The notes under the pieces: generated by a model
Databases searched by the model: none
What the model saw: the letters and a program-made list of their open reading frames with translations, nothing else
What the model was told of the DNA's origin: nothing
Source of the DNA: a virus
DNA length: 64,000 nucleotides
Virus record (IMG/VR): IMGVR_UViG_3300032770_000013
Coordinates: 1-64,000 of that record
Reading direction: 5' to 3' (one strand)
In this document: piece after piece, positions 18,129 to 55,944 of the stretch
Numbering within the stretch: position 1 is the stretch's first letter
Layout of the letters: each line of letters opens with the position of its first letter
Program-made: the position numbers and the translations under genes

Positions 18129-19046
18129 CTACAATTTCGCCATCGGCACTATGCCAAGCCGATCGAGCGCATTCCCAATGCAAGCGGCTGGCGTCAGAAT
18201 ATCTCTAAACCTCTCAAACTGCTTGGCATACAGCGCCTTCCAGAACGGCTTGTAGGATTCCGCCTCCCGGTAAAACCCGTCCAAGCTATCCGCAAAGCTG
18301 ATGATCTGATTCCAAGGCGCAGCCAATTCATGCGGCTCCGCAATGACCGGGCGTCCAAGGCTTAATGCCGACGCGCAGCGAGAGGACGACACCAGCCCCA
18401 TTTTCTCAAGGATCCGGATTTGCACGATAATCCGCGCACTCTGCATTTCCAGATCACGGGTCTCCTGCGCCGAAGCCGTTGGGTTATGCAAGGAAATCAA
18501 CTTGACCGTCCCGCGCCGACCAAGCTTCCTGAGAATTTTATATCGCCTGTTCGACACTGAGCCATAAAACCCGAAATCATGATCTGGCTGGCGGATTTGC
18601 GGCCGCATCATGCCGGGAGAATAGCCGAGTTCAATCTGCTCTGTCGGTGCATATTGCCCATACCAATGCGCTGTGTTCGGCACTAGAGCTAAGACGGCAT
18701 CGGCATATTTGGCGGCTTCGGGAAAAAGAGCCTGCCGCAAAACCATAAATCGATCGGCAGCATGATTAAAACCAACAAATCCAGGCTCCTCACAAGGCTC
18801 TTCAGTTGCAACAAAGATGAACCGACAATCATGTAATCTGCGCGCCTCTTTAAGCATGGCAATCGAAAGTAAATTAAATCCTTCAAAAATCAGATTTACA
18901 CCATCCTTTCCACGTAGAAATTCATCGTCCGAATGATCTATTTGATGACCTAAAGATCGGAGTTGATGGACAATAATTTGCGATGGGTCTTGTAATGACA
19001 GCCTGCCAATTTGTGAGTGATTAAAAAGATTTAACCGAAAGCGCAA
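18129..19046 (-). CDS. Glycosyltransferase-like protein (GT-B type)
   Basis: DFGFYGS...RR and VSSSRC...RPVIAE motifs; paralog of 53585-54772. Confidence 0.55.
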   Translation of the reverse strand: MRFRLNLFNHSQIGRLSLQDPSQIIVHQLRSLGHQIDHSDDEFLRGKDGVNLIFEGFNLLSIAMLKEARRLHDCRFIFVATEEPCEEPGFVGFNHAADRFMVLRQALFPEAAKYADAVLALVPNTAHWYGQYAPTEQIELGYSPGMMRPQIRQPDHDFGFYGSVSNRRYKILRKLGRRGTVKLISLHNPTASAQETRDLEMQSARIIVQIRILEKMGLVSSSRCASALSLGRPVIAEPHELAAPWNQIISFADSLDGFYREAESYKPFWKALYAKQFERFRDILTPAACIGNALDRLGIVPMAKL

Positions 19047-48423: not shown

Positions 48424-49650
48424 TTAATCTTTGTCGACATAATAAGATTTTACCTCATTAGACCCAGAATGACACGCGGCATCAATCTCGCCCTTCAGCC
48501 CCATCCGCAGTTTGTTCAGCCGCATCGCCTTAACGTGCTGGTCCGATGCTATCTCATTGTGCCGTCCGCCGGTAGCCTTTGGCACCATATCCTCAAGCAC
48601 GTCAAACGTCTCGGCGTGAATGTCCACCAGCGAACTCAGTAGCTTTGATAAGCCTGGCTGACGAAGCAGAAACCGTCCCGCTTCCGCATGACGCTGGTAT
48701 TCCCGCTCGATCAATGCCCGCTTTTCCGGGCCAAACCGCATCCGCTTCACGATCAATACCGCAAACCGGTCAAGGAAATCACCCGGCGTCAACGGCATCT
48801 TCACCGAGCAAATCGGCGAGGGATCATGCAGACGAAGCCGCCGCGCATTGGCCCCGTCTAGGATAAGCCCAATCAGCTCATCATGGTTGAGGTCCGTGAT
48901 CTTATATTCCTCGACGTCGAAATCAAACCCGGCAAACTTCGCCACCGAGGCATAGGGGAAAGTATCCTTTGCCCAATAGGCCGGCGCTCGGCCGCCATCT
49001 ATATCCGGTGTTGCCAAGGTCTTGCGACACGGCCATTGGCCGGTGACGAATACCGACATCAACCCGCATTGCGGCCCGATCACCCATTCGGTCGCGCACG
49101 CCTTCGCCAATAAATCATGCAGCCCAAGCTTCTTGTCGTTCACCCATACTTTGCGCCCGGCCGCATAAAGCGCAGCTACCAGCCGCGGATAGAAGCTCGG
49201 TTGCGTGTTCGGCCATGTTGTCGCTTCCACGATCATCACCGTATTCGGCTCAAACGGCGGCGCATTCGGTAATCGCGGAAGACTTAACGGCGCTTGCGGA
49301 TCCAGCCCGAGCACCATGCGGAACATATCGGCGTGGGTTACGTCATGCTGTGTGGGAAGATGATCGAGCTTGATCCTGTTCCGGACCATACACGGATGCG
49401 CGTAGAACGGCTGGCCGTTGCCGATGATGTTCTCGTATGATCGCTGAAAAGCCTGGTTTGCCTCCGTGCCGAATGTGGCAATGTCATCGACGCGGTATCG
49501 GACGCCCTTGAACAGATCGACCAAACCGACATGGCCGCTTTTAATAACCAGTTCAACGTTGTCTGTCCGATGCTGGCGGCAGAAACTCTCATAGAGCGAA
49601 GCGACCAAGTAGACATCGCCCAAGCCTCCGAGAACTACGATGGTCTGCAT
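48424..49650 (-). CDS. GT9-like glycosyltransferase with C-terminal helical domain
   Basis: GGLGDVYL and VIGPQCGL motifs; paralog of 54978-55763. Confidence 0.5.
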   Translation of the reverse strand: MQTIVVLGGLGDVYLVASLYESFCRQHRTDNVELVIKSGHVGLVDLFKGVRYRVDDIATFGTEANQAFQRSYENIIGNGQPFYAHPCMVRNRIKLDHLPTQHDVTHADMFRMVLGLDPQAPLSLPRLPNAPPFEPNTVMIVEATTWPNTQPSFYPRLVAALYAAGRKVWVNDKKLGLHDLLAKACATEWVIGPQCGLMSVFVTGQWPCRKTLATPDIDGGRAPAYWAKDTFPYASVAKFAGFDFDVEEYKITDLNHDELIGLILDGANARRLRLHDPSPICSVKMPLTPGDFLDRFAVLIVKRMRFGPEKRALIEREYQRHAEAGRFLLRQPGLSKLLSSLVDIHAETFDVLEDMVPKATGGRHNEIASDQHVKAMRLNKLRMGLKGEIDAACHSGSNEVKSYYVDKD

Positions 49651-51790: not shown

Positions 51791-52279
51791 TCACAGAAAC
51801 ACATCGAGGCGACCGGCCTCTATATTGGCGATGGCCTCTCGTAGCCTCTGAGCTTTGTCAGCGGCCATGCGTTCTTCGGATTCGGCACGCTCTAGCCTAT
51901 AGCGCGCCGATTGAAGCATTTTCGTCAGACTTCGCTTGGCGCCCTTGCGCAGATAGAAATTATCGCGACTCGAATTGGAATGGTTGAGGTTCACAATGTC
52001 CGCATCATCGTAGTAATCAGCCTGGTGCTCACTGGACTTTTCGAGGTCCGCGAGATTGCCCAAGTGCTCCAACGTCAACGCCGGCAGATCGGCTTCTGCA
52101 AAGGATCGACCGTCATTGCCGCTGCCCCAAAAGGTATCTCGCAGCCGACCATTCTTGACGACGGCTATGCAGGAACAACAATGGTAGCGACCCCATGAAC
52201 CGTCGCGCTCAGGGTCGGGTTCGCGAAAGCGCCAACGATAAATGTCGCCTTCCCGCAACTTCTCTGAAACTTCTGCCAT
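51791..52279 (-). CDS. Hypothetical protein
   Basis: 162 aa with RBS. Confidence 0.55.
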   Translation of the reverse strand: MAEVSEKLREGDIYRWRFREPDPERDGSWGRYHCCSCIAVVKNGRLRDTFWGSGNDGRSFAEADLPALTLEHLGNLADLEKSSEHQADYYDDADIVNLNHSNSSRDNFYLRKGAKRSLTKMLQSARYRLERAESEERMAADKAQRLREAIANIEAGRLDVFL

Positions 52280-52380
52280 CGCTCGCCTCTGTTTCGCCGC
52301 CTCGCGTCTAAGCGATAACTGACGGGCGCTTTGATTTCATTGATCTGCGCACACACACTGCCTTAGAGCGCACCCATCGA

Positions 52381-52530
52381 TTACCCGACTCCACGCCGCG
52401 CCGTTCCGAGGTCAGGATAACGTATTATCTCTTGATGCACGGACAAGTCCACTTCCTCAAGGTTAACGCGCCCAAGCCGATGAGGAATAAATCCCCGCCA
52501 CTCTATCGTGCCTATCCGGTTGTCGCTCAT
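52381..52530 (-). pseudogene. Displaced duplicate of the 3' end of the 53585-54772 gene
   Basis: IEWRGFIPHRLGRVNLEEVDLSVHQEIIRYPDL versus VEWGGFIYAVPHRSGRIYLEEIDLGKHPEIMRYSDL. Confidence 0.7.
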
Positions 52531-53588
52531 TGAGCTACACGTCCCCGGCTTCCCTCAACAGGACCCGCAGCACTACGGGCGAGAATGTTCTTTGCACTAT
52601 TGTGGTCACGGTCATGGACCGCACCACATTCATCACAAATCCATTCCCTTATTCGCAACCCTTTTTGACCTTTTGGGCCACTGCGCGCACCGCACGCAGA
52701 ACAGGTTACGGTCGTAAAACTCTCGTTCACTTCCTCATAACCTACTGATTTGTATTTCAGCATGGTACGGAAAGTAGACCAACTAGCATCCAGCACGGAC
52801 TTTGCCATCCGTGTCTGTGCAAGCTGCTTCGCATTGACGTTGCCCACGACGATTAGCGAGTATCGAGCCGCAAGCTCCGTCGAAAGTTTGTGTAGAAAAT
52901 CTTGGCGACAGTTTTGGATTTTGATCCACAGACGCCGCGACTTTCGCTGGTTATTGGCGCGCTGAGATTTAGCTATTCGCTGTTCATATTGCCGATAATA
53001 TTGCGGTGCTCCAATCCTGCGGCCATCGCTCAATGTGACGAATGATTTTAGACCGAGATCAATCCCAATAGCTGCATCTCCGCCAATCCGCTGCTCAACC
53101 TCAACATGAAAACAAACATACCAGCGACCCAAGCTATCTTCAACGAAGTAGCCGCCTTTAGCATTCTCAGGAAGCGGTCTGCCGCCTTCCCAAAATCGAT
53201 ATCTCTTACGAAAATAAGTAATAGTATTGCCTTCAATTTGACGACCTTGATTCTGAAATGGTATCCATCCCAAAGAACGTTTCGCACCAAAACTTGATCT
53301 GAAATTCGGAGCACGTTTAATCTTGTCTCGAGCAACAGCAAACTGCCGACAAACCTCGCCTACACTCTGCTGATTCAAATTCAATATTTTGCTGACTCCC
53401 TTGCAAAGCTTTTGTAGATCATAGTGAGTTGCCCATTTACGAGGCTTCTCACCAGCCCGATAGCGTGCTTGCACGTCAAGTTGTTGAGCACAGCAGTAAT
53501 TCCAAACCTGATTAACAGCATAAGCATGTCGCCTCAGCGTCTTTTTGGCTGAGCGATCTTTGATGCGATATTTATAAGTGAGAATCAT
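52527..53588 (-). CDS. tnpB: TnpB RNA-guided endonuclease (IS200/IS605 family), no tnpA
   Basis: TYKYRI; GIDLGLK; TTVTCSACG..WICDECG..HDRDHNSAKNIL. Confidence 0.9.
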   Translation of the reverse strand: MILTYKYRIKDRSAKKTLRRHAYAVNQVWNYCCAQQLDVQARYRAGEKPRKWATHYDLQKLCKGVSKILNLNQQSVGEVCRQFAVARDKIKRAPNFRSSFGAKRSLGWIPFQNQGRQIEGNTITYFRKRYRFWEGGRPLPENAKGGYFVEDSLGRWYVCFHVEVEQRIGGDAAIGIDLGLKSFVTLSDGRRIGAPQYYRQYEQRIAKSQRANNQRKSRRLWIKIQNCRQDFLHKLSTELAARYSLIVVGNVNAKQLAQTRMAKSVLDASWSTFRTMLKYKSVGYEEVNESFTTVTCSACGARSGPKGQKGLRIREWICDECGAVHDRDHNSAKNILARSAAGPVEGSRGRVAQ

Positions 53589-54772
53589 TTTGATGACATT
53601 AAGCGTCTGGCTTCTGACAGGTCGGAATAACGCATTATTTCGGGATGTTTTCCTAAGTCGATTTCCTCAAGGTATATTCGTCCTGATCGATGAGGGACGG
53701 CATAGATGAAACCGCCCCACTCTACAAGATTAGCTCCACCATAGGATTCAACCAATCGCGCCCGCGGCCCGCTATGCACAACATTTTGCGTGTGGCTGTT
53801 TACCCGGATCAGCTTCTTCGGCGGCCCTTTCGGCGTCTGCACCGCCGGCAGCACCACATCAGGCGGCTTGGGCAGAATAGCTATCGCTTCCGCTATTCTG
53901 CTCGGCTTGCGCTTTAATGCCGCCAATTGCTGCTCGTGCACCTCTTCCCATCGGTCGAGAACTTCCAGCGCAGCATCGTAAAACCCGCCATCCGGCGCAA
54001 ACCGAACTATCCTCGCCCATTCGCCTTGGACCCGCAGCGATCTGGCCTCAGCCACAACCGGCCGACCATACCCGATCGATGTCACATACCGGACCGACGA
54101 TACCAGATCCCACCACGGATATTGCTTAAGATCCAAGACTACACGCGAATACGGCAAGCGCCGATCCCGCTCGGCCAATGGCGTTGAATGCGGGATGACG
54201 TCGACCGAATGCCCGCGATGAATGAATTGGTCGAGCGTCTTGGTTCGGCGCCGGGTCAGGCTCCCGAAAAAGCAGAAATCATATCGCGGCATAACCTTGC
54301 CTCTTACCCTCGCCACGCTGGTCCGCGGCGGCACTATCGTCTTGAACCGCTTGCCCCAGACCATATCAATATCGGCCGCCCGAGGCACAAACCGCCTGAT
54401 AATCTTGGCGGTATCCGGTGCATAGCACCATGCCGCTGTCATATACGGTGCACTCTCAATGAAGCACTCCGCCCGCTCGATCCAGTCGTCCGAGGTGCGG
54501 TAGTTCCAGACCACGCCTTCATCGGTAACCAATGTCGGCTCTTCCGTCACCAGCACAATCATCTGGTAGCCAGCCTCGGCAAGTGATTGCACCAGCCTTG
54601 GATTATTGGTTACTTCGCTGACGCCTTCGGAGAAGATGTTAAACCACGGCGGAGGGAGGAATATCCCGCGATTGACGGCAAATTCATGCCCCAATGCTTC
54701 GATCTGGTCGCGGAGATCGTCTACTTGATCGCCAGCTTGGGCATCGATCGAGAGCATGTAGCTGAAGCGCAT
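53585..54772 (-). CDS. Glycosyltransferase-like protein (GT-B type)
   Basis: TEEP, YDFCFFGSLTRRR, VSSVRY..RPVVAE; paralog of 18129-19046. Confidence 0.55.
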   Translation of the reverse strand: MRFSYMLSIDAQAGDQVDDLRDQIEALGHEFAVNRGIFLPPPWFNIFSEGVSEVTNNPRLVQSLAEAGYQMIVLVTEEPTLVTDEGVVWNYRTSDDWIERAECFIESAPYMTAAWCYAPDTAKIIRRFVPRAADIDMVWGKRFKTIVPPRTSVARVRGKVMPRYDFCFFGSLTRRRTKTLDQFIHRGHSVDVIPHSTPLAERDRRLPYSRVVLDLKQYPWWDLVSSVRYVTSIGYGRPVVAEARSLRVQGEWARIVRFAPDGGFYDAALEVLDRWEEVHEQQLAALKRKPSRIAEAIAILPKPPDVVLPAVQTPKGPPKKLIRVNSHTQNVVHSGPRARLVESYGGANLVEWGGFIYAVPHRSGRIYLEEIDLGKHPEIMRYSDLSEARRLMSSK

Positions 54773-54977: not shown

Positions 54978-55763
54978 TCAAATACCAACGGCAATCCTCT
55001 CGACGGCCTCTTCCCAATTGGTAGGAGATACCACGAAATGCCTGACGTCCGGATGGTCATTCCCTGCGAAGGTGGAACAATGGCCATACGGCATGGTTTC
55101 GGTCAAGCCAAAGAGATAAGGATTTGCCTTGCTCAATTCGCAAATAGCAAAGGTCTTGCGGCAAAAGAATAGCGCATCGCAGAGCACCGACATAACCCCA
55201 CATTGCGGACCAATGACATGCTCGGAAGCATCGCACTGATCGAACAACTCCCGTAGCGACCATTCCGGCTCGACTAGCCTAGCGTCCATGCGCTTTGCCA
55301 GCGCCTCCCAGAATTGAGGCGGCAGATTTGGCCACGACCGCGACGTATGGATTATCAGCGTGCCACTACCCCGCACGATCCTTCGTGGACCGAACGGGAC
55401 TTCCAGCGGCGCCCACGGCGAAAGGCCGAGTAATGCGCGGTACATATCCGCTTGGCTGACACGAGGCTTAACCGTCAGTTGGTCGATACGAACCGGTGTC
55501 CGAACGAAATGCGGGTGAACGTAGTAAAATCCGCGGTCGGCAATCTCGTTGGCATGGCTGAGTTGAAAGAACTGGCTTCCTTCCGCCGAGGCCACAACCT
55601 CATCGCTCGCCTCGTAATCCACGCCGAACATTTGCGGGATTGCGACCTGCGCCGATTTGACTACCACGCAAGCCTTGATGCTGTGTTCCTTTTCAAAGGC
55701 ACGGACAAGACCGCAGATGAGATAAGCATCCCCAACGCCATATAGAGCCACGAGGCGAATCAC
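54978..55763 (-). CDS. GT9-like glycosyltransferase
   Basis: YGVGDAYL and VIGPQCGV motifs. Confidence 0.5.
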   Translation of the reverse strand: MIRLVALYGVGDAYLICGLVRAFEKEHSIKACVVVKSAQVAIPQMFGVDYEASDEVVASAEGSQFFQLSHANEIADRGFYYVHPHFVRTPVRIDQLTVKPRVSQADMYRALLGLSPWAPLEVPFGPRRIVRGSGTLIIHTSRSWPNLPPQFWEALAKRMDARLVEPEWSLRELFDQCDASEHVIGPQCGVMSVLCDALFFCRKTFAICELSKANPYLFGLTETMPYGHCSTFAGNDHPDVRHFVVSPTNWEEAVERIAVGI

Positions 55764-55944
55764 GACAATCTCTTTCGCTTGGGCCGCACATTGTCCCGAG
55801 CTCGCTGACAAACTTCATGCCAGCAGCGCCGGCAGAATGCTTTGCCCGGACGCGTTGTCCTCATAATTCCCCGCCACGGATAAGCGGTCGATTGGATCTT
55901 GACCAGCATCGTGTCCGGATGACGTGGACAAAACCAATGGGCGA

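Follow-up and report, generated by a model that had tools for sequence, protein, structure and literature searches.

A solitary tnpB gene between two versions of a gene's 3' end in a phage genome: a candidate RNA-guided homing cassette

Introduction

The mobile endonuclease ORFs (mORFs) of fungal mitochondria, known from atp6 of Allomyces macrogynus and from atp6, atp9, cox2 and nad3 of Glomus, share a layout in which the core of a gene is followed by an inserted foreign C-terminus, an endonuclease open reading frame (ORF) and the native C-terminus, the latter being closest to that of sister species (PMC3630166). In Allomyces, the endonuclease has been shown to drive the mobility of the mORF (PMC3630166). 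Here, we describe a phage locus in which a tnpB gene stands between two versions of the 3' end of a glycosyltransferase-like gene, hereafter the host gene. The locus occupies positions 52381 to 54772 of a stretch of 64,000 nucleotides (the window), which is the first 64 kb of IMG/VR record IMGVR_UViG_3300032770_000013, a 95,988-bp phage genome that is complete according to CheckV. With about as much belief as doubt, we consider the locus to be an immobilised TnpB/omega-RNA module that behaves as an mORF, was copied in by break repair and would cut native-type alleles of the host gene.

The window locus has the same order of parts as the mORFs: a gene core, a diverged C-terminus, a nuclease ORF and a native C-terminus closest to sister taxa. 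In both cases the native copy resembles that of sister taxa, the inserted copy is diverged and the gene remains whole. The mORF nuclease is a protein-only LAGLIDADG or GIY-YIG enzyme, whereas that of the window is a TnpB whose specificity would be written in the displaced tail; moreover, mORFs reside in an organelle and the window locus in a phage. A further comparison is offered by the free-standing homing endonucleases of T-even phages (SegF, SegB and Mob), which are known for intronless homing and marker exclusion. Their genes also lie beside the target gene, the carrier allele is resistant by substitutions, as proposed for the window, and in mixed infections neighbouring markers are converted along with the target. 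Unlike the window TnpB, these enzymes read DNA by protein contacts, and no gene end is duplicated.

TnpB proteins of IS200/IS605 elements (ISDra2; PDB 8EXA, 8H1J; PMC10055086) are, like the window protein, nucleases with a RuvC domain and a zinc finger, whose structured RNA overlaps the 3' end of the gene and whose guide is the DNA just past the right end of the element. The cutting of element-free alleles has been proposed as their role in homing (PMC10055086, PMC13565253), as it is here for the window, and TnpA-independent spread of IS605 elements by TnpB has been described in plasmids as 'non-restorative homing' (PMC13565253). Unlike IS200/IS605 elements, the window locus lacks a left end and TnpA and does not transpose, and its cassette includes a piece of the host gene. 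In the window, self would be distinguished from non-self by sequence substitutions; in IS200/IS605 elements, the distinction lies in whether the element is present between the target-adjacent motif (TAM) and the target. IStrons, which combine a group I intron with TnpB (PMC10690162), also place a TnpB element inside a gene whose function is preserved. This is achieved by RNA splicing in IStrons and would be achieved by a spare tail in the window; the IStron class was rejected, as neither a group I intron nor any other Rfam family was matched at E up to 1 in 51800-54000. Literature searches found no paper describing a TnpB cassette with a spare gene end.

Results

Layout of the locus

All features of the locus are on the minus strand, in the order host gene, tnpB and a 49-codon ORF:

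53585..54772, minus strand: host gene, an ORF of 395 aa, with a glycosyltransferase-1-like part (residues 1-305) and a C-terminal extension of ~90 aa
53588..53758, minus strand: putative imported tail of the host gene, codons ~339-395, with low GC content at third codon positions (GC3), supplying the functional C-terminus ...EARRLMSSK
53706..53725, minus strand: in-gene site corresponding to the guide target, as read from the sequence, with 5 mismatches and CTT before it
52527..53588, minus strand: tnpB, 353 aa and intact, identified by Pfam, PHROG 506, ISDra2 structures and the alignment of its clade
52507..52625, minus strand: predicted omega-RNA scaffold with a provisional 5' end, within and just past the 3' end of tnpB, supported by conservation and covariation and ending in ...AACCGGATAGGCACG
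52487..52506, minus strand: predicted 20-nt guide ATAGAGTGGCGGGGATTTAT, the first bases past the conserved scaffold end
52381..52506, minus strand: displaced 3' end of the host gene, probably native, 41 codons and a stop, in frame, with one 9-nt deletion
52381..52530, minus strand: 49-codon ORF, consisting of an 8-codon leader (MSDNRIGT) from the right end and the remnant of the host gene

The tnpB ATG overlaps the host-gene stop as ATGA, and a second ATGA joins the tnpB stop to the ATG of the 49-codon ORF. A first-pass annotation, made from the letters alone, had already pointed to a tnpB gene without tnpA that overlaps the stop of the gene upstream, and the whole 96-kb phage record indeed contains no Y1 transposase (Y1_Tnp / TnpA). 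As tnpB is present in a single copy, no Y1 TnpA is encoded and the left end is missing (see below), ordinary transposition is excluded as the current way of moving.

The host gene and its two tails

No Pfam or PHROG family was matched by the 395-aa host protein. For residues 1-305, the feature and structure neighbours in the ESM Atlas are of the Glyco_trans_1_2-like type, which is a lead only. We collected 89 homologs of the host gene, the closest of which, P0002 and P0003, are 78% and 75% identical; the C-terminal extension of ~90 residues is absent from relatives of ~300 aa. A paralog of the glycosyltransferase-like body, without the C-terminal extension, was also observed at 18213-18968 (minus strand; 29% identity over residues 22-284, E 3e-16).

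The 49-codon ORF and the last 45 residues of the host protein share 25 of 41 aligned residues (61%; BLASTP E 3e-14), and the two flanks of tnpB also match by tblastx (1e-11), so that the paralogy suspected in the first-pass annotation is well founded. At the DNA level, the two tails align from TAGAGTGG to the end. Since only 41% of their third codon positions are identical and 16/41 aligned codons are non-synonymous, the two tails are old homologs and not a recent duplication that was silently recoded. The same numbers speak against the earlier description of the resident tail as recoded: this tail comes from a diverged ortholog, and import from a related phage of lower GC content is the better reading.

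The composition of the locus was then considered along the host gene. GC3 is 0.55-0.85 up to ~codon 338 and 0.30-0.45 from there to the stop (from ~53758), and values in tnpB, mostly 0.25-0.50, continue the low level of the in-gene tail. The AT-rich codons noticed previously at the end of the host gene thus begin at ~codon 339, ~10 codons upstream of the target, and persist through tnpB. Because the in-gene tail and tnpB have the same low GC3, they would have arrived together from a lower-GC relative, and this arrival would be recent, as the composition has not been ameliorated.

Which of the two tails belongs to this phage lineage could be judged from the closest homologs. P0002 ends in ...PDLGAARRGVG and P0003 in ...PDLVTARRGVG; the downstream remnant ends in ...PDLGTARRGVG and the in-gene copy in ...SDLSEARRLMSSK. 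Identity to the P0002 tail is 34/41 for the remnant and 29/41 for the in-gene copy, with 79% in the gene body. Considering both the shared ...ARRGVG end and the higher identity to P0002, the sequences indicate that the displaced downstream tail is the native tail of the lineage and that the in-gene tail is foreign, in agreement with the earlier suggestion that the downstream copy is the displaced original. The remnant ORF matches only itself among 5.8 billion proteins, without a second carrier. No host-gene homolog was present among GenBank phages, and a search of genome contigs returned one homolog, which ends before the C-terminus.

Omega-RNA scaffold and predicted guide

The boundary between scaffold and guide was deduced from the 3' regions of ~20 TnpB relatives. 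These regions are conserved through ...AACCGGATA(A/G)GCACG and diverge fully thereafter. In the window, the scaffold ends at 52507, and base 52506 is the first base homologous to the host gene (ATA GAG TGG, codons I-E-W). As the guide starts with the first base past the conserved scaffold end, it is predicted at 52487-52506, a segment that coincides exactly with the 20 nt at the start of the displaced native tail (codons I-E-W-R-G-F-I). The first-pass annotation had expected a guide derived from the displaced 3' end within 52440-52510, and the predicted position lies within that range.

Covariation in the scaffold supports four helices with 17 pairs, in which 95.9% of cells are paired and 36 double-sided changes occur; none of 500 shuffles reached this value, and slid controls gave 30-41%. 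The scaffold is therefore a real structured RNA, and every pair is retained in the window copy. Beside the scaffold, we also observed that an ATG at the right end overlaps the tnpB stop (ATGA or TAATG) and opens a leader, M..NRI(S/G)T, into the flank, both in the window (52507-52530) and in relatives. The leader frame is open for at least 40 codons in 11/22 loci, compared with 7 and 3 for the other two frames, a weak enrichment; a leader ORF that reads in frame into downstream genes was rejected on these frame counts. The 12-mer GCYTATCCGGTT, whose only exact copy in the window is at 52510-52521, has 22 sites in the window with up to 2 mismatches, compared with 7.9 +/- 2.9 in shuffles (max 15).

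The in-gene site and a putative repair scar

Of the 20 positions of the guide, 5 (1, 10, 12, 15 and 18) are mismatched in the in-gene site at 53706-53725. When the phage genome was searched for the first 16 nt of the guide with up to 3 mismatches, only the guide template itself and one 16-mer with 3 mismatches were found; the latter (genome 71654-71669) lies outside the window and is unrelated to the host gene. For the recoded and immune resident copy inferred in the first-pass annotation, the differences from the guide are confirmed and their origin has to be corrected, the resident tail being foreign and not recoded.

The only indel in the remnant is an in-frame deletion of 9 nt that removed three codons (FIY[A/S]VPH to FI---PH). 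It lies between 52486 and 52485, after nt 21 counted from the scaffold end (+/-2 nt), and may be a repair scar in the usual TnpB cut zone. The chance of a single indel in ~125 nt falling in this zone is ~5-10%.

TnpB protein and its catalytic residues

The window TnpB contains the domains OrfB_IS605 (PF01385, 7e-15) and Cas12f1-like_TNB, a zinc finger (PF07282, 1e-17), and it aligns with ISDra2 TnpB structures at 5e-24. In this alignment, D177 (RuvC-I) and D328 (RuvC-III) correspond to ISDra2 D191 and D361, and the zinc finger is formed by C296, C299, C318 and C321. The residue aligned with ISDra2 E278, the canonical RuvC-II Glu, is N250 within VGNV. In all 15 aligned relatives, the canonical position is occupied by N or D, and a Glu corresponding to E289, in the motif V(D/N)E, is invariant. 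This residue is 39 positions past N250 and just before the CxxC...CxxC finger. Hence, both points of the first-pass annotation, namely that VGNV takes the place of the usual RuvC-II Glu and that the Glu of VNES may substitute for it, agree with the clade alignment and fit the rearranged RuvC-II clades.

In those clades, termed TnpB2 or RIIr, the canonical Glu has been lost and a conserved substitute Glu is found ~45 residues downstream (PMC10530073, PMC10691335). They comprise active nucleases, and the substitute Glu is required for cleavage in a Fanzor enzyme (PMC10530073, PMC10691335). TvTnpB, which has a rearranged site, makes a TAM-dependent cut at positions 21-22 (PMC10530073), and some RIIr branches are virus-specific (PMC10691335). 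Throughout the window clade, too, the canonical Glu is missing and a conserved substitute lies ~40 residues downstream, before the zinc finger, although the canonical position is N or D here and G or P in the largest TnpB2 / RIIr groups. Judging from these residues, the window TnpB looks nuclease-competent.

Relatives of the window TnpB and their ends

The relatives examined are 46-71% identical to the window TnpB, apart from one weak match of 30%, and come from 9 viral-contig loci found by a protein scan, further loci found by a scan for the right-end motif and 37 metagenome loci. They are tnpB-only elements of 1.15 kb. Their left end, with CAT or CGT ahead of GCTTATCCGGTT..., is an inverted copy of the right end. 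No such motif was found upstream of the window tnpB, where the imported tail takes its place; several relatives likewise have no left end. A candidate left-end relic in the in-gene tail was discarded, because the short TTATCC resemblances lie within the conserved RY(P/S)DL motif and do not exceed chance. More than 30 left-end junctions of relatives have a flank that terminates in CAT or, in fewer cases, CGT; CAT (sometimes CGT) is presumably their TAM.

Several features of this family were observed in addition. Terminal inverted repeats of ~26 bp were detected in many members (L005, L007, L009, L010, L034, L062, L117 and others), in which the right end CTGTG...AACCGGATAAGCACG and the left end CGTGC/CATGC-TTATCCGGTT...CACAG are reverse complements of each other; such repeats are atypical of IS200/IS605-type elements, whose ends are hairpins. 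The flanking CAT and the first G of the left end form an ATG that opens a mini-ORF (MLIRL...), which ends at or near the tnpB start. One 117-kb phage contig, IMGVR_UViG_3300050119_000104 (L006, L025, L027, L086, L087, L093 and L105), carries three tnpB copies of the family and at least 8 short derivatives with the same ends, resembling miniature inverted-repeat transposable elements (MITEs). In some phages, this family is actively mobile. The tnpB of the closest relative (71% identity; L124:330-380) also lacks a left end, and its start codon shares an ATGA with the stop of an open frame upstream, as in the window; this frame is a candidate gene only, on a contig of 1.7 kb. A peptide resembling a gene tail before the right end of this locus was rejected, being merely a longer variable stem.

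Flanks could be tested in 40 relatives, and L034 was the sole case of a flanking duplication among them. There (L034:1233-2420, minus strand), a direct duplication of 14-15 nt, TCTGATATCATGCT, flanks the element, and the copy past the right end rebuilds the opening codons (SDIML...) of the downstream gene that the element interrupts; these codons continue the frame of the right-end leader ORF. It is a small-scale parallel to the duplicated tail of the window. A further match suggesting a flank duplication (L127) was dismissed as low-complexity similarity between signal peptides.

Other features of the window

Two genes of no known family that are similar to each other, at 54978-55811 and 48424-49650 (both on the minus strand), lie on either side of the locus. 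In a 50%-identical relative (L014), their counterparts directly adjoin the host-gene homolog; compared with it, the window has small genes and the tnpB cassette added between the two. A scan for promoters and terminators gave signals at chance level. The sole resolvase-type serine recombinase of the phage (PF00239, 1.5e-40) is encoded at genome 86589-86990 (minus strand), outside the window and 33 kb from tnpB, and is probably unrelated to the cassette.

Discussion

A possible course of events

In the reading that we prefer, double-strand-break repair would have copied a unit comprising a foreign gene tail, tnpB and the omega-RNA scaffold into the glycosyltransferase-like gene, near its 3' end, with a related phage of lower GC content as the source. 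The host gene would then end in the imported tail and stay whole, and the native tail would be pushed downstream, where its first 20 nt would be transcribed as the guide. This guide would spell the native-type allele carried by sister phages, from which the carrier's own copy differs at 5/20 positions including position 1. During co-infection of a carrier and a native-type phage, TnpB would cut the native-type allele at a point ~21 nt inside the target. The broken end on the downstream side could pair with the remnant of the carrier and prime synthesis back through the scaffold, tnpB and the spare tail into the gene body, with the recipient retaining its own tail past the cut. As a result, either the cassette would be copied into the rival by repair from the carrier, or the rival would simply be damaged.

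Such a model explains why the right junction is exact, why the remnant is native-like and has a deletion in the cut zone, why the foreign tract starts ~10 codons before the target (by co-conversion) and why the host gene is intact. A Campbell-type single crossover of a circle was rejected, since the remnant would then begin ~10 codons earlier, at the start of the foreign tract. Homing by the window TnpB is plausible and has a strong precedent in the mORFs. With equal justification, the locus may be described as a TnpB freed from its transposon or as a homing cassette of the mORF type whose nuclease is RNA-guided.

Alternative explanations

Several observations weigh against homing. A match between the guide and the downstream flank is, by itself, automatic for any TnpB. 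The TAM of the relatives also raises a difficulty: the codon before the target encodes Leu, Ile, Phe or Tyr in every homolog and Leu in the close ones, and since a Leu codon reads CTN or TTR, a naive allele cannot offer CAT or CGT. This leaves two options: the window TnpB recognises a different TAM, or it is unable to cleave typical naive alleles in this register. Only the window shows a long duplicated gene end, and none of the 40 relatives with testable flanks has one. The GC3 of the remnant, 0.50, is ambiguous as to whether this tail is native or imported. The imported tail matches only itself among 5.8 billion proteins, so that no other carrier and no donor lineage was found. Scans of metagenomes with the host-gene alignment, and of viral sequences for the exact guide and for a degenerate NL[VI]EW[KR]GFIY coding pattern, returned nothing. 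The misfit of the TAM and the single occurrence of the duplicated tail would be expected if the locus were a passive recombination scar, in which the tail and tnpB came as a block by ordinary homologous or illegitimate recombination, TnpB being a passenger whose guide cuts nothing relevant. Mosaic boundaries of phages often bear nuclease genes and partial duplications (cf. PMC10448857). However, the right junction coincides exactly with the boundary between scaffold and guide instead of lying at an arbitrary position, the 9-nt deletion is within the cut zone, TnpB and its omega-RNA are fully intact, and the same layout in mORFs is driven by an endonuclease. We therefore regard a passive scar as unlikely, albeit the most serious competitor of homing.

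The precise junction at the right end is also what TnpA would make, and one could imagine that a complete insertion sequence was inserted by TnpA and truncated the gene, that a foreign tail later replaced its left end, and that TnpB is now a relic. The loss of the left end in several relatives and the L034 locus, in which a small flank duplication restores the reading frame of the interrupted gene, are in line with such repair in place. On the other hand, the imported tail and tnpB have the same low GC3 and hence arrived jointly; canonical insertion requires CAT or CGT before the target, which a Leu codon cannot supply; and two rare events would be needed, the second of which would have to create the exact ATGA overlap. 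This course of events appears improbable to us. A domesticated RNA-guided DNA binder of the TldR (nuclease-dead repressor) type, which would repress or mark its target instead of cutting it, was also considered in view of the missing canonical RuvC-II Glu (N250), and phage TnpB derivatives of such a kind exist (cf. 10.1101/2025.07.22.666180). However, the window protein is of full length with D177, E289, D328 and the four zinc-finger Cys in place, which led us to reject its assignment to the TldR class. D177, the substitute E289, D328 and the zinc finger are retained across the entire clade, which still forms mobile two-ended copies and MITE-like derivatives, and no site in the phage genome matches the first 16 nt of the guide with up to 3 mismatches except the guide template and the 16-mer mentioned above. 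A role of this kind is therefore highly improbable.

Implications for TnpB biology

TnpB is thought to survive by aiding its transposon. Here, it is found with neither a transposase nor a left end, and yet it is intact, its import appears to be recent and its arrangement resembles that of a homing cassette. Should the window TnpB cut native-type alleles, TnpB could spread between phages alone, as a programmable homing endonuclease. We also suggest, tentatively and with somewhat more doubt than belief, that phages carry a class of TnpA-independent TnpB cassettes without left ends, which act as RNA-guided mORFs and form a natural 'cut-and-rescue' drive; the window locus would be one clear member, with a repair scar at its cut site. 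Such a cassette would bring a resistant spare end for the gene that it enters, the displaced native end would be retained for its role as template of a guide directed against sister phages that have not been invaded, and spread would occur by break repair during co-infection.

Synthetic home-and-rescue or recoded-rescue CRISPR drives combine, like the window locus, an RNA-guided nuclease placed in a gene, a cleavage-resistant replacement of the 3' part and a guide directed against the wild type. Unlike the window locus, they are engineered, use Cas9 and operate in diploid animals. For a direct test, the locus provides both the guide (52487-52506) and, as its counterpart, the native-type or the resident tail. 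If native-type alleles are cut, this phage would hold a natural counterpart of engineered rescue-type gene drives, whose guide and target are legible from the genome.

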